From IMG/VR virus record IMGVR_UViG_3300015179_000040: a stretch of DNA of 8,405 bases; one strand, written 5' to 3'. The first letter of the stretch is position 1; each line of letters begins with the position of its first letter. Positions 1 to 8,068 of the stretch are shown here, piece after piece. This DNA comes from a virus (Duplodnaviria; Heunggongvirae; Uroviricota; Caudoviricetes). The notes under the pieces are model-generated. The model was not told the origin of the DNA and did no database searches. It was given only the letters and a program-made list of their open reading frames with translations. Made by a program: the position numbers and the translations under genes.

Positions 1-1131
1 TCAAATGACCAGTTTTTTCCACTCCTTACCGCGTACATCGTTGTAAATATCGGTCATTTTTTGATTCGAATGACCTAGCAAAATTTTGGTATCAACCCCC
101 TGCTCTCTGAACAATCGCTCTGATAAAGATCTCTGCTCATGGAAAGAGGGTGGGGTGCCATTAGCACGCCAGTTGTAATCCACAGAATCCCGGGCTTTTT
201 TAAATGCAACTGTTAATGTTGCTGGCTTAGCCATCCCGCCGCGCTTAGCTGTCCCTTTCGCGTGATGGTGGTGCAATAGCCACGGACTAAGAACACAATC
301 GCGGCAGGATGACACTACATCATCCAGGGTGAGATTTAATTTATCGCAACGCAGAGCCAGAGGGATGGCAATCCGGGTTCCTGTTTTTTGCTGTTCGACA
401 TGAAGATAACCATCCCGGATATCCGAAAATTGCATTTTGCAAATATCTGAAAGGCGCTGGCCTGTCATCAGTGCCAGCAGCATACCGCGCTGTAAAAAGT
501 AACCATCCTTTTCCGCTGCGTTATAAATCATCATCCACTCATCAAAAGTCAGTCGCTGTCTTGATATCCGCACCTGCGGTTTTTTTTCCTATTTTGCAGG
601 GTTAAAGCCTGGCGGGACATCGCCCGTTTGCTGAGCTTCCCGGAAAACATCGATCAGTACCTTCCTGAAAATTTGTCCCATTCTGTTATGTCCTCTGGCC
701 TTGTACTCTTCCAGTACTGATACCACATCTTTTACGGTTATGGCATCTAACGGTCTGGTGCCAAAACGTTCATCAAATACCCTGAGAGGGGCCGCTTTCT
801 GTTTCAGCGTGTTGAGTTTGATCTCGCCGTTTTCATATCTTTCCTGTTGAATTTTTCTGTAATTATTCAGAAAAATGGTAACGGTTGATGAACCGCCGGT
901 ATCACTAATAATTTTCTCCTGCAGACTGAGCATTTGTTCCATTTGCTGCCGGGCAAGACGGCTGTTCGCTTCTGCTGCAATAGTTTCTGCCAGTTTCTGG
1001 TCAATACTGCCGAGACCGTGATTTTTGCCTGTTATGGGATGCCTGTAACGCCAGTAAACTTTGTTATTTCTTTTGTCAAAATACGGAGATAATCCCGGAA
1101 CATTGGTTTTATATTTTCGCGGGCGCGCCAT
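1..1131 (-). pseudogene. int: Lambda-family tyrosine integrase, full-length reading frame (376 codons) interrupted by a single in-frame TAG at 589-591
   Basis: ORFs 589..1131 and 1..573 are in the same frame, separated only by TAG plus five sense codons (GAA AAA AAA CCG CAG) before a GTG. The N-terminal part resembles the lambda Int arm-binding/core-binding region (RNNKVYWRYRHPITGKNHGLG vs lambda RNNGYYCYRDPRTGKEFGLG). The C-terminal part carries the catalytic residues in lambda-like context (TGQRLSDI, VEQQKTG, FHEQRSL, LLGHSN, TDIYNDVRG, with Tyr nucleophile). Reading-frame stop TGA at 3..1. Identity from motif memory, no search run. Confidence 0.8.
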
Positions 1132-1421: not shown

Positions 1422-3896
1422 TTAAAAATCAGCCTGATTCGGGATCAGTTTTTGCCAGATAACTGAAACGTATTTTGCCTGGTAACGGGCGTCATCAAGT
1501 GCATTATGGCGCTCACCTTCGAATGGAATAGCCGTTCTGGCATCGAAGTCTATGGCTTTCCCCAGCTCAACGATTGTGCGTACATCGCGATCGTTGTAGT
1601 AACGCCACGGGCAGGGGATCCCCTGCCGTTCGTATGAACGGCGCAAAATCGTGTTGTCGAAGTTGGCTCCATTTCCCCAGACCTGAACAAAAAATTCACC
1701 GGAGTTTTCGTCGATAAATTCCCGCAATTGTAACAGTGCATCATCTAACGGGATTTCATCGGTCATAATGGCAGACTGCGCTTCACGTGATTGCTTCAGC
1801 CACCTTTTAATGACGTCACGATCAATGACTCCGCCAGCAGTTTCCAGATCGATAGTCTTACTAAATTCCGGTCCCATATCTCCGGTTTGCGGATCGAAAA
1901 ATATTGCACCTATTGAGATGATCGGGGCATCAGGATTTTTTCCCATGGTTTCAAGGTCGATCATTAGATGGTCACACGTCCTGCTGGTGGATGTGATTTC
2001 TTGATGACCGTTCACCTTAATTGAGTGATCTGCCGTCTCGCCAGTTTCATTATCGCTATCGTGATGCTGATTGCCGTCAGTGTTCTCCTTGTGTGGATGT
2101 TCAGCGCCTTCCATTTCCTCCGGATCATCTTCCTGAACTTCAACCTGATACTCTTCATCGAATGTTTCCTGGTATGTTGCGTCGCCCATCACCGCGCCAC
2201 AATCAGGGCAGTTGCCGCCGCCGGTCTGACCGCAGGCGGTGCAGACTTTTTCCACTTCCTGTTGCGCCACTGGTTCAGGCTGTTTCGTTTCTGGCTCGTT
2301 TTGTAACGCATTTGGGCTGTTTTGTTCCGCTTTCTGGCCGTTCTGTTCCGTTTCTTGCTGGTTCTGATTCACTGAATCGCGGGTTTCAATCCCCTTCACC
2401 CATTTCGGATCATTCGGGTCGCTAATCCCTGCAACAAATTCACCACGTGATACAGCAAGCAACTTATTGGCGTCAGGCTGGCTGATATTGGCTGCCTGCA
2501 TAATTTTGTTTACTTCGTCAGCGGTAACTTTTACCGGCTCTGGTTGTGCGATCGTGTCAGATGCACCAGTATTTTGTTGTGAACCTGAGTACGTGCCGTT
2601 TTTACGTGCGAAGTATTCCTCTTTTGTGATTTCCGTAGCTCCCAGGGCCAGTGCTTTTTCCAGACCAGAAAGTTTGTTTGCGCGACCGTATTTTTCGCCG
2701 TCCTTATCGGTGAAAAGGAAGTAGAACGGTCCCTCACGCTCTACAGATGGTTCGTCTTCCACTTCGCATTCGGTTTTTTCGTTGTCCGGCATTGCCGTTT
2801 CCACTGCATCAGTTTCTGGTACTGGTGACGGGAGAGTACCAGCTGTGCCCTGATTTGTTCCTTCGTCATCTTCAAACACGCCCTTGGTAGTCAGGTATTC
2901 AGTGATGTATTTGTTCAGTGCTACGGGATCTTTGTGAATGTCGATCGGACGCTCACGGACAAGGCCAAAAATAGTCTGACGGTCGTAGCGAACGGCATCG
3001 GGTTGTTTGCGCATTGATGCGGAAATGCGCTTCCAGTCTTCGCGATCTTTGTCGATAACTTCATTTTTTGCCCAGCGATGGATGCTGCCGTCAATGTTTC
3101 CGGTATCAATATCGCCAGGCCAGAGAGCGTAGGCCAGTTCTTCATCCAGCGTTTTCCATGTCTGCTTGTATTCGCGACAAATGGCGGCAGTGACTGGGTT
3201 GATTTTTCCTGCTGAGTTTTCAGTGTTCTGTTGATTGACTCTGGCGCTGGCGAGATCAACAACAGACGTGTATTTTCCAGTCTCTTTGCGCTCTGCGTCC
3301 TGCCGTTTTTTCCAGTTACGTAATTCAGCCTGAATTTCGGGCCATTTGGCACCCGGATTACATTTGTGTTTAACCCATCCGATAGCGAACAGTTTGCGTT
3401 CCGGATACATAGCGTTAATTTCAGGCGTTTTCATCAGTGCTTCAACGATATGCCCGTCAAAGGTAGCAACGTCTTCCTGCAGTAATTCCTGCGCGTCAAT
3501 CGCCATATCAACGGTGATGTTTTCACATGTACCGAACTTAACCAGGACCGCGTTCTGTACTTCAAGGGACAGCTTGTCAAAATTGACGTTCATCGGATCG
3601 GATTCTGGTTCGACCGGAATAAAGGAAGCGGATTCCTCATCCCAGCGGTTTTCCTGCATATATTCAGCATCCCAGGAATCGAGGGCAGGGCGGGGTATAC
3701 CGGGTTTATCCTCGCAGACAAGAAATTTATAAGCGCAGTCCTGAGCAGCCGGATAATGTTCCAGGAATTGCCAGTGAAATTTTGCGCGGGCGCGACGTTC
3801 ATCACCGGCTTCAATGGCAGTGGCTACAGCGACGGCACCTTCTTCCTTTATTGCCTGTTCGTCCGGAATGGCGGCGCAAATAAAGACTTTACTCAT
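1422..3896 (-). CDS. Large prophage exonuclease (824 aa): RecE-like N-terminal region, acidic linker with CxxC-x7-CxxC knuckle, C-terminal DnaQ-like DEDDh 3'-5' exonuclease domain
   Basis: Long uninterrupted ORF with SD (GAGGT) 9 nt upstream of the ATG. The C-terminus has the three DEDDh motifs (MIDLETMG; WGNGANFDN; HNALDDARYQAKY). The central motif LLAVSRGEFVAGISDPNDPKWVKGIETRD matches what I remember of the RecE (exonuclease VIII) N-terminal region. Position between ydfD-like and xis matches the ydfE slot of K-12 Qin. No search run. Confidence 0.8.
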   Translation of the reverse strand: MSKVFICAAIPDEQAIKEEGAVAVATAIEAGDERRARAKFHWQFLEHYPAAQDCAYKFLVCEDKPGIPRPALDSWDAEYMQENRWDEESASFIPVEPESDPMNVNFDKLSLEVQNAVLVKFGTCENITVDMAIDAQELLQEDVATFDGHIVEALMKTPEINAMYPERKLFAIGWVKHKCNPGAKWPEIQAELRNWKKRQDAERKETGKYTSVVDLASARVNQQNTENSAGKINPVTAAICREYKQTWKTLDEELAYALWPGDIDTGNIDGSIHRWAKNEVIDKDREDWKRISASMRKQPDAVRYDRQTIFGLVRERPIDIHKDPVALNKYITEYLTTKGVFEDDEGTNQGTAGTLPSPVPETDAVETAMPDNEKTECEVEDEPSVEREGPFYFLFTDKDGEKYGRANKLSGLEKALALGATEITKEEYFARKNGTYSGSQQNTGASDTIAQPEPVKVTADEVNKIMQAANISQPDANKLLAVSRGEFVAGISDPNDPKWVKGIETRDSVNQNQQETEQNGQKAEQNSPNALQNEPETKQPEPVAQQEVEKVCTACGQTGGGNCPDCGAVMGDATYQETFDEEYQVEVQEDDPEEMEGAEHPHKENTDGNQHHDSDNETGETADHSIKVNGHQEITSTSRTCDHLMIDLETMGKNPDAPIISIGAIFFDPQTGDMGPEFSKTIDLETAGGVIDRDVIKRWLKQSREAQSAIMTDEIPLDDALLQLREFIDENSGEFFVQVWGNGANFDNTILRRSYERQGIPCPWRYYNDRDVRTIVELGKAIDFDARTAIPFEGERHNALDDARYQAKYVSVIWQKLIPNQADF
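2277..2381 (-). repeat. Degenerate 21-bp (heptad) tandem repeats inside the exonuclease gene
   Basis: About 4-5 imperfect copies of a GTTYTGTTCCGYTTCTKGCYG-like unit. They encode Q/N/E-rich heptads NQQETEQ / NGQKAEQ / NSPNALQ / NEPETKQ / PEPVAQQ in the linker preceding the zinc knuckle. Confidence 0.45.
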
Positions 3897-3975: not shown

Positions 3976-4179
3976 TTACGGCGCTGTTTTTAATCCTGCC
4001 GGGATTTCGTTATTGTCCATGTGAATAACTTTATCGACCGGATAACAGTTGCCGGGAATTTTCTGTTCCGCTGCGGCAGCCATGCATTCTTTCATTGAGT
4101 TGTACATGCCGGTGATTGCATCAAGCGACTCACCAGTATTGAGATGTACAGTCAGAATGAGTACGAATAATGTGTTCAT
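3976..4179 (-). CDS. ydfD: YdfD-like small membrane protein (DUF1482-type; reported lysis protein in Qin)
   Basis: 67 aa from the ATG at 4179..4177 (MNTLFVLILTVHLNTGESLDAITGMYNSMKECMAAAAEQKIPGNCYPVDKV...). Hydrophobic N-terminus. Its ATG overlaps the dicB TGA stop (ATGA), indicating translational coupling. Sits in the same position relative to dicB as K-12 ydfD. The ORF track starts it at an upstream GTG (4185). Confidence 0.7.
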   Translation of the reverse strand: MNTLFVLILTVHLNTGESLDAITGMYNSMKECMAAAAEQKIPGNCYPVDKVIHMDNNEIPAGLKTAP

Positions 4180-4364
4180 CGCCACTCTCCGAAAATACCG
4201 AGTTTAAGAAGGGCAATTCTGGAGAGTATGGAATTGTCATTCAGCAGGTAGGGTTCATATTTTCTCATATTGATTGCATCCTCGGTGAAATCCCTGTTAC
4301 TGAGCAGAACACCAATATTAAAGCACCCGTCAGACGTATTAACGTTTGGTAGTGACGTTTCCAT
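4176..4364 (-). CDS. dicB: DicB-family cell division inhibitor (MinC-activating, FtsZ-ring inhibitor)
   Basis: 62-aa ORF METSLPNVNTSDGCFNIGVLLSNRDFTEDAINMRKYE... matches my memory of the E. coli DicB N-terminal signature (LPNVNTSEGCFEIGV...FTEDAIN.RK). SD GAGGA 8 nt upstream, overlapping the rha stop codon. Confidence 0.85.
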   Translation of the reverse strand: METSLPNVNTSDGCFNIGVLLSNRDFTEDAINMRKYEPYLLNDNSILSRIALLKLGIFGEWR

Positions 4365-4374
4365 TATCGCGTCC

Positions 4375-4932
4375 TCAACAATGAATTTTTAGCAATTGCT
4401 CCACAGTCATATTTTTAATTGCGCTCCGGTTTACAAGAGTCCATCCTTGTTTCTCCAGATAAAACCGGAAGGTATCCAGGGTGCAGACCATTGCGCCGTC
4501 AGGAACGGTTTCAGTGAATTTGATATTGCCGTGTTCGTCGAGACGGATAACCAGGGTGCGTCCGTCCCCGTGAATCATTTTGTCGGGAGACGGGGCGTTA
4601 TTCTGGCGCAGTTCTGCTTCCATGCGGTCGAACTCAGCAATGTATGCCTCTTTAAATGCAGCGGCTTTTTTGCCAGTGAAGCCCATCACCAGGAAAACGA
4701 AGCCGTTTTTGGTGATTTGGTACATTGGGAGTTTGCGCCCGGTTGAGTCGGTGTATTCGCTCGACACAAAATTGTGCTCAGTGAATTTTGCTGAACAGTC
4801 CAGATTGCGAATTTTATCCAACACTCGTTCGTGGCGTTTGCCAAAGAACTCGGCGATCGCAACAGACGTAGTGACAGCGCGACCATTTTCGATGGTTACG
4901 TCAGGGTGAGAAAGGGTAAGGATAGTAGCCAT
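4375..4932 (-). CDS. rha: Rha-family phage regulatory protein (Phage_pRha domain; antirepressor-like)
   Basis: Start chosen at the ATG 4932..4930 (MATILTLSHPDVTIENGRAVTTSVAIAEFFGKRHERVLDKIRNL...YQITKNGFVFLVMGFTGKKAAAFKEAYIAEFDRME), preceded by GGAGG at 8-nt spacing. These motifs are typical of the Rha family. The in-frame upstream extension to 5229 in the ORF track was rejected (see noticed_but_rejected). Confidence 0.75.
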   Translation of the reverse strand: MATILTLSHPDVTIENGRAVTTSVAIAEFFGKRHERVLDKIRNLDCSAKFTEHNFVSSEYTDSTGRKLPMYQITKNGFVFLVMGFTGKKAAAFKEAYIAEFDRMEAELRQNNAPSPDKMIHGDGRTLVIRLDEHGNIKFTETVPDGAMVCTLDTFRFYLEKQGWTLVNRSAIKNMTVEQLLKIHC

Positions 4933-5097
4933 GATGGCAGCCTCCGCGATGAATTTGATTAACTCACCACCGAGGTTTTCCACGACCATAAGGGTGGTGA
5001 GACGTACAGGGGTGGAAATACCGGTCATCACGGAACCCGGCCAGCCTTGCGGCTGCCCTGCACGCCCCACCATAATGCGAATGTGGCTGTGCTTAAC

Positions 5098-5128
5098 GCA
5101 TAAAAAAACCGCCTGAGCGCGGTTATGC
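5098..5128 (-). terminator. Rho-independent terminator upstream of rha, within the operon
   Basis: On the minus strand: GCAUAACCGC-GCUCAG-GCGGUUUUUUUAUGC. A short GC stem with 6-nt loop followed directly by a 7-U tract. The plus strand has no U tract after the stem. Confidence 0.5.
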
Positions 5129-5410
5129 GCCGTGAATGATTTCGGGTTTCCACGCCCGGCACCCGTTTTATGAGGTGCAGGTGCACTATAATTCCACCCG
5201 TTCTGGTTTTCAATAGCTACATTCAACATTTTCTCTACCTTTCATCACCGAAGTGAACTTTGTTGATGCGGTGCCTGGTGCCTCCAGGTGACGTTAACCA
5301 GTTAACAATTAACGTCGGATACAGAGCATTCCCGTTACGCCCGTAAAAGACCGCTTGTTTTAACTGTTCCGCGTGCGCTGAGCCGCATTCACCGCATCAC
5401 AAAATTCACT

Positions 5411-5472
5411 TTAAAAGGGGCGGGTATCATGGGAAAAACAAAACGGATACCCGCCAAAAGGTAATCAACATG
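5411..5472 (-). ncRNA. dicF: DicF-like small RNA (divergent homolog) ending in an intrinsic terminator
   Basis: Minus-strand sequence UGUUGAUUACCUUUUGGCGGGUAUCCGUUUUGUUUUUCCCAUGAUACCCGCCCCUUUUAA has a 10-bp stem GGCGGGUAUC/GAUACCCGCC followed by CCUUUU. It resembles, from memory, E. coli DicF (…UUUGGCGGUAUCAGUUUUACUCC…GCCGCCCUUUUU). Synteny fits: downstream of ydfC-like, upstream of dicB. Ends are approximate; not confirmed by a covariance model. Confidence 0.45.
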
Positions 5473-5795
5473 GGTTGTTGCAGCGGGGTTGTCACTCAGG
5501 CGTATGGTCAACCTGACAACCCGGTGGACATTTGCGAGGAACGGAGAACCCCCGCCATACTTACCGCCGCGCCATTTCGCGGAGTGCCACAACCGGAAGC
5601 GCACGGTCGACGAAAATTTAACGACAGGCTATCTATGAACCAGCAACCTCGCCGTGCGCTTTCGCGTTATGCTCTGACTTTTCAGAGAAATATCCTTTCA
5701 GTAAACTGTCAGTGCCGGATGCTCACCCGTGTCCGGCGCACACACTCCACCTCACCCGTGGAGAACTCCTTAATTACCAACCCTCAGGAGGGTGA

Positions 5796-6029
5796 ATGTT
5801 AAAATCAACGCTTATTGCTAAATGCCTTTATCAAAATCGCATGGTAAGCAGCATTTCAATAGGCGAGTCTGCAGTTAAAAGTATTTTCGAAGAGTACTTT
5901 CCCGGGCATGATTTTAATAAATGGAATACCAAATTACCGCCAGCAGTTTCAACGCGTATTCTGAAAGCAACTGAAAGAGCAAGTACAATTCGCGTTAACT
6001 ATTTCATTAAAGATTTGTGGGATCTTTGA
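5796..6029 (+). CDS. Hypothetical 77-aa protein, opposite strand to the operon, convergent with and overlapping the 3' end of the 135-aa ORF
   Basis: ORF with AGGAGG-type SD 4-5 nt before the ATG at 5796. Protein-like composition (MLKSTLIAKCLYQNRMVSSISIGESAVKSIFEEYFPGHDFNKWNTKLPP...). No homolog recognised. Could be a chance ORF in an AT-rich stretch. Confidence 0.3.
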   Translation: MLKSTLIAKCLYQNRMVSSISIGESAVKSIFEEYFPGHDFNKWNTKLPPAVSTRILKATERASTIRVNYFIKDLWDL

Positions 6030-6414
6030 TATCCACAGAGCCTAAAGTATGTGCATATGGATGTGCTGTTGTGCGCCCTCGCAGATTTGCATCATTTTCT
6101 AAATTCACTGAACGAAACAGGGCATCAACAAGGCTCTGTACAATGCAAAGGCAATCGAAGACTGTCGCCGTTTCTGTTTTGATTGATGAAAGAACATGGC
6201 CATTCACGCAAACAGAAATTACCCGTTTATTAACATCGCTTTCCTGCTTTTGATTATCAGAACCATATAGCCCTGAAAAAGCATTGCGCACATTACGAAC
6301 CATATTATCGATGGTTTCTTTTTTGGTGTATGCCGGGTCAATTTTCACCAGACTATCACCGAGTGTCGTTGCAGCAATTATCTGGATTTCTTTTGGTAAA
6401 TCTTTAAATTCCAT
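6007..6414 (-). CDS. Hypothetical 135-aa protein of unknown function, in operon orientation between ydfC-like and the dicF-like RNA
   Basis: ORF with SD GAGG 6 nt upstream of the ATG at 6414, starting 22 nt after the ydfC-like stop. AT-rich codon usage distinct from the neighbouring GC-rich stretch. No family recognised from memory. Confidence 0.65.
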   Translation of the reverse strand: MEFKDLPKEIQIIAATTLGDSLVKIDPAYTKKETIDNMVRNVRNAFSGLYGSDNQKQESDVNKRVISVCVNGHVLSSIKTETATVFDCLCIVQSLVDALFRSVNLENDANLRGRTTAHPYAHTLGSVDIKDPTNL

Positions 6415-6436
6415 TATTAGCCTCGTTGGTTAACCA

Positions 6437-6655
6437 TTAACGTGGGTATGTAATCATTCTGGCAATGCTTAATGCCGCTGCTTTTTCCAGATTGGTGATA
6501 TCCTGCTCCAGAGCGGACAGATTTTCAGCCTGCTTAGCCCTGGCTTCATTGGCCCATTTCAGGTCCTGCGCAGCCTTAATTTTCTGGTGCATCCACTCAT
6601 AAAGTTCATCATCGGTATAGTCTGGCGCGATGATGACGGGTTCTCGTTTCTGCAT
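6437..6655 (-). CDS. ydfC: YdfC-like small protein (DUF1317-type)
   Basis: 72-aa ORF MQKREPVIIAPDYTDDELYEWMHQKIKAAQDLKWANEARAKQAENLSALEQ... with SD GAGGAA 7 nt upstream. Matches my memory of Qin YdfC in length and sequence. Confidence 0.75.
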   Translation of the reverse strand: MQKREPVIIAPDYTDDELYEWMHQKIKAAQDLKWANEARAKQAENLSALEQDITNLEKAAALSIARMITYPR

Positions 6656-6684
6656 ACTGATTCCTCGCGGTGCTGCTTCGCTTA

Positions 6685-6813
6685 TCAGCCGTTAGATTTT
6701 GCCGGGCTGGAAAGCGCCTGTATAAACTCACTGAAGCTGAGAGTTTCTTCGCCTTTGGCAAGGCCTTCGAAGTATTCTTCGTAAGCCTTTTCCATGATTG
6801 TGTCGAAATCCAT
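6685..6813 (-). CDS. ydfB: YdfB-like small protein (42 aa)
   Basis: Hand translation (below the ORF-track length cut-off): MDFDTIMEKAYEEYFEGLAKGEETLSFSEFIQALSSPAKSNG. ATG 6813..6811 lies 1 nt after the ydfA-like TGA stop, SD AGGTG upstream. Length and position match Qin ydfB. Confidence 0.6.
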   Translation of the reverse strand: MDFDTIMEKAYEEYFEGLAKGEETLSFSEFIQALSSPAKSNG

Positions 6814-6814
6814 A

Positions 6815-6970
6815 TCACTCACCTGAGTTTCTTTCCAGCCAGCGACGGGCACCATTTTCGGTTTTAAACGTTTTGCTTTTGGTATACGTCATCGCGGTGA
6901 ACGTACCGTCCTGGTTGGGGAACACACCACATACCAGAGATTCGTTGTTGCCAAGATCGATAGTATCCAT
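6815..6970 (-). CDS. ydfA: YdfA-like small protein (51 aa, DUF1391-type)
   Basis: Hand translation (not in ORF track): MDTIDLGNNESLVCGVFPNQDGTFTAMTYTKSKTFKTENGARRWLERNSGE. SD GAGG about 6 nt upstream of the ATG at 6970..6968. First gene after the predicted operon promoter. Confidence 0.65.
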   Translation of the reverse strand: MDTIDLGNNESLVCGVFPNQDGTFTAMTYTKSKTFKTENGARRWLERNSGE

Positions 6971-7035
6971 GTTGACCTCATTTCCCCTTAACGCCGGGTG
7001 GCGGAACTAAAACCTACAGCGCCGTGCTGTTCTTG

Positions 7036-7223: not shown

Positions 7224-7685
7224 CTACTGGTTACGTTTCTTTAGTGCCAGCATGTTCTCGAAGGCTTCCTCGTAGAGCTTGTTTAGTCCACGTAGCTGGT
7301 TAAGGAGTTTGGCTTTTTCTGACGCAGGTAGAATCTCGAAGAGGTTAAGTAACTCTGCCTGTTCTTCATTGACCAGCCTCCATCCTTTGCCTGAAAAGTT
7401 ATCATCATAAGTATCTGATGATCTTACATAATTCATTAAGTCTTTAAGGTCTTCTCGAATGTCCTCTGGTTTTACCTTTAACAGAGCCGCAAATTTTAGC
7501 GCAGCGTCGGTATTTACCGGTATCTTGCCGTTCAGATACTGGCTAACGGTGCCTTGAGATTCGAATCCCAACAACTCAGCCGCCAGCTCTTGAGTCAGCT
7601 TCAGCTCTTTTTTTCTTGCATTCCATGCGGCTTTTAAATTCTTGCTCGCTTCTGGAGTTGCAATCACTTCGCGTGTTTTTTTCAT
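7224..7685 (-). CDS. DicA-like HTH (XRE-family) prophage repressor, no LexA/S24 autocleavage domain
   Basis: 153-aa ORF with HTH LTQELAAELLGFESQGTVSQYLNG and C-terminal LNLFEILPASEKAKLLNQLRGLNKLYEEAFENMLALKK, resembling the DicA C-terminus (LELFNALPESEQ...FNKLFEELLKARQ) from memory. Divergent from the Cro-like gene. No recognisable SD before the ATG. Confidence 0.75.
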   Translation of the reverse strand: MKKTREVIATPEASKNLKAAWNARKKELKLTQELAAELLGFESQGTVSQYLNGKIPVNTDAALKFAALLKVKPEDIREDLKDLMNYVRSSDTYDDNFSGKGWRLVNEEQAELLNLFEILPASEKAKLLNQLRGLNKLYEEAFENMLALKKRNQ

Positions 7686-7762: not shown

Positions 7763-7792
7763 TTGCTCGAGGCATAACGTAGAAGGTTGGCT

Positions 7793-8068
7793 ATGAACTT
7801 AAGAGACTATTTAAAAGAGAAACATATCACCCAGCTACAGTTTGGGAAGCTAACGGGTTTATCTCAGGTGCATGTAAGTCGAGTGCTGGGAGGCTATGAA
7901 AGATTCAGCCCTGAAAAAGCATTACGTGTTGCTGAAGTAACGAATTTCGAGGTTACACCTCATGAACTCCGGCCTGATATTTACCCGAATCCAACCGACG
8001 GCTTACCTGTTGGATTCAAGGCTAACACACCAAATGCATCGGAGTTGATTCATGAAAATCAGGCATGA
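7793..8068 (+). CDS. YdaS-family Cro-like HTH regulator
   Basis: 91 aa from the ATG at 7793 (SD GAAGG 6 nt upstream): MNLRDYLKEKHITQLQFGKLTGLSQVHVSRVLGGYERFSPEKALRVAEVTNFEVTPHELRPDIYP. HTH plus the HELRPD motif I associate with Cro-like YdaS proteins. Occupies the dicC/cro position. The ORF track starts at an upstream TTG (7787). Confidence 0.65.
   Translation: MNLRDYLKEKHITQLQFGKLTGLSQVHVSRVLGGYERFSPEKALRVAEVTNFEVTPHELRPDIYPNPTDGLPVGFKANTPNASELIHENQA

Follow-up and report, generated by a model that had tools for sequence, protein, structure and literature searches.

Several described systems resemble, each in part, the gene pair reported here. In lambda, P22 and Rac, sieB is an accessory gene of the pL region that runs against the early operon and is thought to be expressed by the prophage, and the phage carries its own countermeasure, SieB being a membrane protein of about 190 amino acids (aa) whose gene also yields Esc as an internal in-frame product. 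Convergent units with overlapping 3' ends are found in txpA/RatA and bsrG/SR4 of Bacillus subtilis prophages and in cII/OOP of lambda. Here we describe two convergent genes, orf77 and orf135, in an 8,405-nucleotide stretch of a Caudoviricetes virus (IMG/VR record IMGVR_UViG_3300015179_000040), hereafter the window, and show that orf77 is inherited together with the gene for the C-terminal domain (C-domain) of orf135 with a fixed tail overlap. The early operon of the window, which represents the left arm of a Qin/dicB-type lambdoid prophage, lies on the minus strand; orf135 follows ydfC on that strand and orf77 is antisense to the operon. An initial annotation, made from the sequence alone, had given coordinates, lengths of 135 and 77 aa and a 23-bp convergent overlap, all of which hold (Table 1).

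Like sieB, orf77 opposes the operon and is found near the first early genes, after ydfC in the window and elsewhere after the first gene behind a cI-like repressor, but orf77 and orf135 encode two separate soluble proteins on opposite strands and have no sequence similarity to SieB. The pair shares with the 3'-overlapping type I toxin–antitoxin systems the convergence of two units whose ends overlap, here by at least 23 bp, which would give rise to an RNA duplex; these systems, however, combine a tiny hydrophobic membrane toxin with a non-coding RNA, whereas two conserved soluble proteins under purifying selection are found here. Type II toxin–antitoxin genes form co-directional bicistronic operons, unlike the present genes, which are convergent and on opposite strands in every locus examined, and neither orf77 nor orf135 is similar to a known toxin or antitoxin family.

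Both open reading frames (ORFs) are genuine genes, beyond what chance would produce, since they are annotated by the Prokaryotic Genome Annotation Pipeline (PGAP), belong to PHROG families and are conserved across genera. In RefSeq both are "hypothetical protein" (orf77, WP_000920491.1; orf135, WP_000394517.1), orf77 matching phrog_10348 over residues 1-77 of 77 (1.1e-47) and orf135 matching phrog_1363 over residues 1-130 of 135 (7.5e-47). Homologues of orf77 of exactly 77 aa, with 55-72% identity, occur in Klebsiella, Raoultella, Dickeya, Xenorhabdus, Salmonella, Morganella, Yersinia, Serratia and Proteus. Across genera, the proportion of nonsynonymous differences (pN) in orf77 is 0.11-0.30 against a saturated proportion of synonymous differences (pS) of 0.6-0.88, while close pairs within Proteus and within Serratia give pN=0 and pS 0.06-0.09; for the C-domain of orf135 the cross-genus pN is 0.25-0.5, again with saturated pS. 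The 67 E. coli-type loci carry 13 nucleotide haplotypes of orf77 with at most 4 differences, none of them disrupted. Moreover, an AlphaFold2 model of orf77 built on a 30-sequence alignment is a five-helix bundle with a predicted local distance difference test score (pLDDT) of 96.8 and a predicted template modelling score (pTM) of 0.86, for which no match was found in PDB or BFVD.

These data bear directly on the simplest alternative, namely that orf135 is the sole gene and orf77 a chance ORF antisense to it. The shortness of orf77 and the lack of a recognised promoter in E. coli would suit such an ORF, but a length kept at exactly 77 aa in at least eight genera, a pN far below pS, intactness in 67 loci, a conserved Shine-Dalgarno sequence, the AlphaFold2 score and an overlap of merely 23 of its 234 bases with another gene leave this explanation practically no probability, and we consider it refuted by conservation. 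The initial annotation had also contemplated that the 77-aa frame might lack conservation; strong conservation is what was observed, and the strong Shine-Dalgarno sequence claimed for it was located as AGGAGG just ahead of its ATG. A second 77-aa ORF in a Serratia locus (L007) is unrelated to orf77 and looks non-coding, and two repeat proteins returned by an exhaustive HMMER search (P0087 and P0103) look like low-complexity artefacts.

The association of the two genes extends well beyond E. coli. Regarding its sampling, a scan of GTDB species-representative genomes gave 4 loci and IMG/VR proved far richer, with 80 loci carrying an orf77 relative, 79 of which have enough sequence to be judged. 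In all 79, orf77 is convergent on a C-domain gene, and in 76 of the 79 the overlap is 23 bp. In Serratia and Dickeya prophages, a 77-aa gene faces a C-domain gene of 77-79 aa across a 23-bp overlap directly behind a cI-like repressor, and the same overlap is found in Proteus (after a ydfC-like gene), in Photorhabdus and in Klebsiella. In Citrobacter the partners are down to about 35% (34%) identity and are still convergent, with an overlap of 51 bp. The pair is thus not tied to one type of site, being found elsewhere directly behind a cI-like repressor with no dicF or dicB after it. In Photorhabdus, orf77 is frameshifted and the adjacent C-domain gene is intact.

Such an association might also arise if the two were functionally independent accessory genes, overlap and co-occurrence reflecting common descent and tight linkage. 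Indeed, the alignment shows an overlap sequence that is simply inherited, replacement or loss can affect one gene without the other (one E. coli variant has only orf77 swapped, and in Psychrosphaera orf77 stands alone), and phage early regions are, to judge from PHROG annotations, mosaics of small genes of unknown function. However, the pairing is kept when both partners have fallen to about 35% identity, in varied neighbourhoods and with varied N-terminal fusions, and a convergent overlap is seen again in cassettes of that site which are unrelated to one another (23, 41 and 51 bp), a recurrence that is hard to fit to descent alone. We judge independence rather unlikely.

The larger partner is modular. 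The AlphaFold2 model of orf135 (pLDDT 76.6) has two domains joined by a linker that is disordered at residues 53-62. Its N-terminal module (N-module), a helical hairpin of residues 1-55 (MEFKDLPKEIQ...NVRNAFSGLY), is also carried by proteins whose C-termini are unrelated, among them Stx-phage proteins of 147 aa at 40% identity, and matches to PHROGs 9419, 2151, 6937 and 33007 are confined to residues 1-55..72. The C-domain, modelled with moderate confidence as a beta-hairpin with helices over residues ~63-135 (about 75 aa), is homologous to stand-alone proteins of 75-80 aa in Serratia, Dickeya, Citrobacter, Klebsiella, Erwinia, Hafnia, Pectobacterium, Yersinia and others, a profile search with it returning 113 clusters from more than 12 genera. 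Within E. coli, helix 1 and the C-domain of orf135 each exist in two alleles, combined as a mosaic. A crude codon count hinted at positive selection on orf135, which the Nei-Gojobori pN/pS values within E. coli (0.72 for the N-module and 0.4 for the C-domain) ruled out; the pattern is one of allele mosaicism. In two IMG/VR prophages the C-domain is fused to other segments, namely to a YdfC-like segment in a 193-aa protein and to a ClpX-type zinc finger in a 157-aa protein. Because such fusions exist, there are hints that YdfC and the C-domain protein act together and that the N-terminal modules serve as oligomerisation or adaptor parts.

Comparison with the Qin prophage of E. coli K-12 delimits the element sharply. 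By blastn, positions 6417-7008 of the window correspond to ydfA-ydfC of K-12 and 5254-5782 to the ydfC-dicB spacer, and no K-12 counterpart was found for 5783-6416, which makes an indel of 634 bp beginning 20 bp after ydfC and reaching, according to the junction alignments, from just before the ATG of orf135 to the Shine-Dalgarno sequence of orf77. The interval between ydfC and dicF is accordingly 340 bp in K-12 versus about 980 bp in the window, and the GC content of the block is 39.3% versus 52.4% (5254-5782) and 48.5% (6417-7008) in its flanks, in agreement with the earlier description of AT-rich extra DNA at this place. That description had further called the block an insertion and proposed to check whether it is variable. 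Variability was borne out, but the direction may be the reverse: the K-12 state could be a deletion, because Proteus has the order ydfC-like gene, C-domain gene, orf77, and because K-12 keeps the CTCCAC-N7-GTGGAG hairpin that flanks orf77, a CCAC...GTGG hairpin being found at the equivalent place in other genera.

A census of site states in 5,426 complete E. coli genomes found the K-12-type empty junction in 2,697 and the orf77/orf135 pair in 650 (12%), including O157:H7 and O111:H8, so that orf135 is far from ubiquitous at a position where the initial annotation had considered that it might be. Two further convergent pairs occupy the same site: one of 133 and 92 aa with a 41-bp overlap (125 genomes, for instance E. 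coli S1-ZIM-01-A, where it replaces the exchangeable core given in Table 1) and one of 201 and 63 aa with a 23-bp overlap (8 genomes), in which only the orf77 coding sequence (5797-6030) is swapped. The small ORFs of both also belong to PHROG families of unknown function. In all three occupied types the large gene has the same 5' end and the small ORF is preceded by CCTCAGGAGGGTGAA, which contains the AGGAGG of orf77; K-12 is without both. Phage Evi, a sequenced coliphage of 40 kb (GenBank record), has the pair at 98%, and PPompW prophages have an unchanged orf77 with an orf135 that is 84% identical.

We see in the block an accessory cassette of lambdoid prophages, mobile and made up of two genes, and not a set of housekeeping phage genes. 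With lambdoid morons it shares presence or absence at a fixed site and a GC content below that of the flanks; several genera also have a motif resembling a promoter for it and, in Klebsiella, there is an upstream terminator. It differs from morons in that one gene lies on the strand of the host operon, in that recombination within conserved flanks exchanges one cassette for another, and in that the E. coli version has no recognisable promoter or terminator.

No homology points to a particular biochemical activity of the two proteins. Neither orf77 nor orf135 has a match in Pfam, NCBIfam, PADLOC or PDB, and orf77 with 30 of its relatives gave zero Pfam matches; no study of either protein was found in the literature under accessions, PHROG identifiers or gene names. 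The only families that contain them, phrog_1363, phrog_23433 (the C-domain) and phrog_10348, are catalogued as "unknown function" and record neither pairing, overlap nor modularity, so that the earlier statement that neither protein is recognisable still stands. With grand average of hydropathicity (GRAVY) values of -0.13 and -0.22, no hydrophobic or membrane segment and folded soluble models, both appear to be soluble proteins. The suggestion, made with the initial annotation, that such a pair may be a superinfection-exclusion, abortive-infection or toxin/antisense module gained no support from the PADLOC search, from the proteins themselves, which have no membrane segment, or from likeness to toxin–antitoxin families.

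The modular build invites comparison with colicins. Pore-forming colicins similarly place an induced effector and a small cognate gene tail to tail on opposite strands, with constitutive production of the small gene during repression of the large one, and are large modular proteins whose exchangeable C-termini go with matching small genes; they are, however, plasmid-borne and LexA-controlled with membrane immunity proteins, no homology links them to the present genes, and here the C-domain also exists without orf77. By analogy, the operon-strand protein could, like other early-left products, be harmful and the small ORF a constitutively made antidote that protects the lysogen against expression that is leaky or comes from nearby, each C-module having its cognate small ORF. 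The combination of a conserved N-module with a variable C-module and a variable small ORF, in three allelic forms between common flanks, would fit this arrangement, as would the opposite orientation of the genes, which would separate constitutive from induced expression. Subpopulations have, moreover, been documented in which dicBp is spontaneously derepressed, and both DicB and DicF, which the operon encodes nearby, are toxic (bioRxiv 10.1101/2023.04.14.536235). On the other hand, the 201-aa and 208-aa forms retain the C-domain without orf77, the frameshifted orf77 of Photorhabdus lies beside an intact C-domain gene, neither protein resembles toxin, antitoxin or immunity families, and orf77 is the more conserved partner, unlike typical fast-evolving immunity proteins. 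An antidote and toxin pair is, in our assessment, distinctly unlikely.

Expression signals differ between E. coli and the other genera. In five other genera, an extended -10-like motif, TTcACC-16-TGgTATCyT, lies 30-33 nt upstream of orf77; a promoter-like site also precedes the C-domain gene in Serratia and the preceding ydfC-like gene in Proteus. In Klebsiella, orf77 is preceded on the same anti-operon strand by a gene for a protein with two transmembrane segments and then by a terminator. This 157-aa protein may be an exclusion-type moron beside the pair. Because of the motif in five genera and of the Klebsiella gene and terminator, the comparison suggests that orf77 is an independently transcribed gene of the prophage state. 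An rrn-boxA-like GCTCTTTAACAA is also found upstream of orf77, on the operon strand, in prophages of Klebsiella, Citrobacter and Dickeya (L020 ~3612-3650; L009, L012, L023), adjoining in Klebsiella a GC hairpin that resembles a terminator for the opposite strand; it might serve antitermination immediately behind the pair in those genera and is absent from the window.

Transcription itself might be what matters. Convergent transcription of orf77 could hold back read-through from dicBp towards the toxic DicF-like RNA and dicB downstream, by collision or through an RNase III-sensitive duplex, the proteins being secondary; cII/OOP of lambda and the 3'-overlapping type I pairs of B. subtilis prophages offer parallels. 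Operon transcripts indeed cross the whole of orf77 antisense before they reach the RNA at the dicF position and dicB, all transcripts that reach these two taking this path, and no terminator was found between orf135 and orf77 in the E. coli version. Yet purifying selection on both proteins and the defined fold of orf77 indicate that the proteins matter, the pair is found in other genera with no dicF or dicB downstream, and a promoter for orf77 is not evident in E. coli. A function exerted chiefly through RNA appears very improbable.

The reading that we favour, though with low confidence, is that orf77 is a protein of the prophage state and the C-domain of orf135 its partner from the early operon, the two being expressed in opposite states and linked in function. 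The gene orf135 lies on the strand of the repressor-controlled early-left (dicB-type, pL-like) operon, its C-domain of about 75 aa being the conserved business end, and in this scheme a promoter of its own would drive orf77 as long as DicA or cI holds the operon off. Firing of the operon would produce the C-domain protein, while convergent transcription and an RNA duplex would shut orf77 down; the opposite states are inferred because operon transcription runs antisense through all of orf77. Least certain is the next step, in which orf77 would be a resident effector with a conserved binding target in host or phage, and the C-domain protein its partner or antagonist; the high conservation of orf77 would predict such a target in the host. 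The lytic programme might thereby escape or switch the activity of orf77, after the sieB/esc logic of lambda and P22, and the role of the pair would lie in phage–phage conflict or in host control at the transition from lysogeny to lysis. That the pair persists although its neighbours differ, in Serratia, Dickeya, Proteus, Photorhabdus, Klebsiella and Citrobacter, speaks for this proposal.

Several observations weigh against it. In E. coli, no convincing sigma-70-like promoter was found upstream of orf77, the best candidate (88 nt upstream, with 4/6 matches per hexamer to the -35/-10 consensus and TAAACT as -10) is weak, and the motif of the five other genera is replaced; here the proposal is at its weakest. 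The C-domain with a C-terminal extension occurs without orf77 both in E. coli (201 aa, with the other, 63-aa partner) and in Serratia (208 aa), and a distant orf77 relative without partner is found in a Psychrosphaera genome. The net charges of the two proteins reveal no charge complementarity, and linkage alone could explain their co-occurrence. Moreover, orf77 is soluble and most exclusion proteins are not, and the defence models of PADLOC-DB v2 gave 0 families at E<=0.1 for orf135, orf77, YdfC and YdfB. The more far-reaching proposal, that the pair is an unrecognised two-protein system whose exclusive expression is brought about by the 23-bp overlap, which controls superinfection, induction or host takeover and whose alternative pairs are exchangeable specificities, is in our view doubtful.

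As a possible new accessory function of prophages, the pair is nonetheless a good, if unproven, candidate. It is common, being found in O157:H7, O111:H8, phage Evi and prophages of at least 12 enterobacterial genera, and it lies in a prophage region that has repeatedly supplied exclusion, anti-restriction and host-control functions. The hypothetical-protein annotation and the PHROG listing were already known. It is new that the two genes form a pair with an invariant overlap, that orf135 is built of modules, that cassettes are exchanged at the site and that a fold without match is encoded. A tail-to-tail overlap between a repressor-controlled early gene and a gene on the opposite strand is a simple design for state-dependent expression. 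If both proteins indeed act on each other, the pair would be a new module of the switch between lysogenic and lytic states or a defence and escape pair; it would also bear on the amounts of the DicF-like RNA and of DicB in pathogenic E. coli, because operon transcripts cross the cassette first.

Table 1. Positions of the gene pair, its parts and the surrounding features (window coordinates, unless an IMG/VR locus is named)
Feature	Position	Strand	Remarks
orf77	5796..6029	+	77 aa, ATG start; antisense to operon
Shine-Dalgarno sequence of orf77	5786..5791	+	AGGAGG, 4 nt ahead of ATG
orf135	6007..6414	-	135 aa, ATG start; directly downstream of ydfC
N-module of orf135	6250..6414	-	residues 1-55; helical hairpin
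C-domain of orf135	6010..6243	-	residues 58-135; phrog_23433
Tail-to-tail overlap	6007..6029		23 bp; encodes both C-termini (orf77 ...IKDLWDL*, orf135 ...IKDPTNL*)
Ribosome-binding site of orf135	6421..6424	-	GAGG, 6 nt ahead of ATG; K-12 counterpart CAAAG
Whole cassette	5783..6416		indel versus K-12 Qin; blastn and junction alignments
Exchangeable core	5797..6263		replaced by 133-aa/92-aa pair in S1-ZIM-01-A
Hairpin	5745..5763		CTCCAC-N7-GTGGAG, 33 nt upstream of orf77 ATG
Cro-like gene	7787-8068	+
cI/DicA-like repressor	7224-7685	-	opposite Cro-like gene
ydfA (DUF1391), ydfB		-	downstream of repressor, ahead of ydfC
ydfC	6437-6655	-	operon neighbour upstream of orf135
Divergent allele at dicF position	~5413-5462	-	10-bp terminator hairpin, 17-nt loop, -17.2 kcal/mol
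isrK	5102-5178	-
C4 antisense RNA	4990-5077	-
dicB	4176-4364	-	followed by DUF1482 gene, 824-aa exonuclease, xis, int
Klebsiella 157-aa protein	L020 3728-4201	-	two predicted membrane helices; upstream of orf77
C-domain fused to YdfC-like segment	L104 3212-3793	-	193 aa
C-domain fused to ClpX-type zinc finger	L097 3212-3685	-	157 aa

Regarding the setting of the cassette, the operon is repressed in K-12 by DicA, and DicA and DicC behave like CI and Cro (bioRxiv 10.1101/2023.04.14.536235). In the window, the cassette is followed on the minus strand by a spacer, an RNA hairpin at the dicF position, an isrK/C4/Rha module and dicB. The RNA expected there as dicF by the initial annotation is not canonical DicF: DicF (Rfam RF00039) was not called in the window at the gathering threshold or at E<=5, and the 5' half and loop are unlike those of K-12 DicF. 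The same allele is found, unannotated, in 227 of the 5,426 E. coli genomes (>=80% coverage) and may be a small RNA with other targets.

The spacer between this RNA and the cassette (5470-5782) hardly varies when the window is compared with K-12 and with two other E. coli prophages, its conservation being above that of the neighbouring genes. It is rich in hairpins, for example GCCGGA-N12-TCCGGC and CTCCAC-N7-GTGGAG, and may be a structured precursor or processing region. A plus-strand ORF of 110 aa that runs through it (5470-5802), which ends 2 nt past the ATG of orf77, had suggested translational coupling and was rejected: it is DNA of the K-12 ydfC-dicF spacer, its frame is broken by indels between alleles and its translation looks non-coding.

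The stretch behind the repressor gathers accessory modules, as is seen from a PaaA2/ParE toxin–antitoxin pair that lies between the repressor and ydfA in one E. coli prophage with the 201-aa variant (locus L011 1694-2172). The integrase (1-1131, minus strand) has an in-frame stop at codon 181 (NPAK*EKKPQV vs NPAESAKKPQV in the intact copy of E. coli S1-ZIM-01-A, which is 98.9% identical), and because of this stop the prophage is probably unable to excise.

Finally, an 864-bp module at 4390-5253 is inserted at the 5' end of dicB; neither K-12 nor E. coli 120899 has it. Besides isrK and the C4 antisense RNA it holds a Rha-family gene, with a duplicated 5' fragment of dicB alongside according to the annotation of a relative; its layout resembles the isrK-anrP arrangement of Gifsy-1. 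The 284-aa "Rha family" ORF (4375-5229, minus strand) spans the isrK and C4 RNA genes without interruption, its Pfam Phage_ASH match (residues 14-109) falling on these RNAs and its Rha domain beginning at residue 120. The true start of the Rha protein is probably near Met109, and the N-terminal part of the ORF may be a translated RNA gene.

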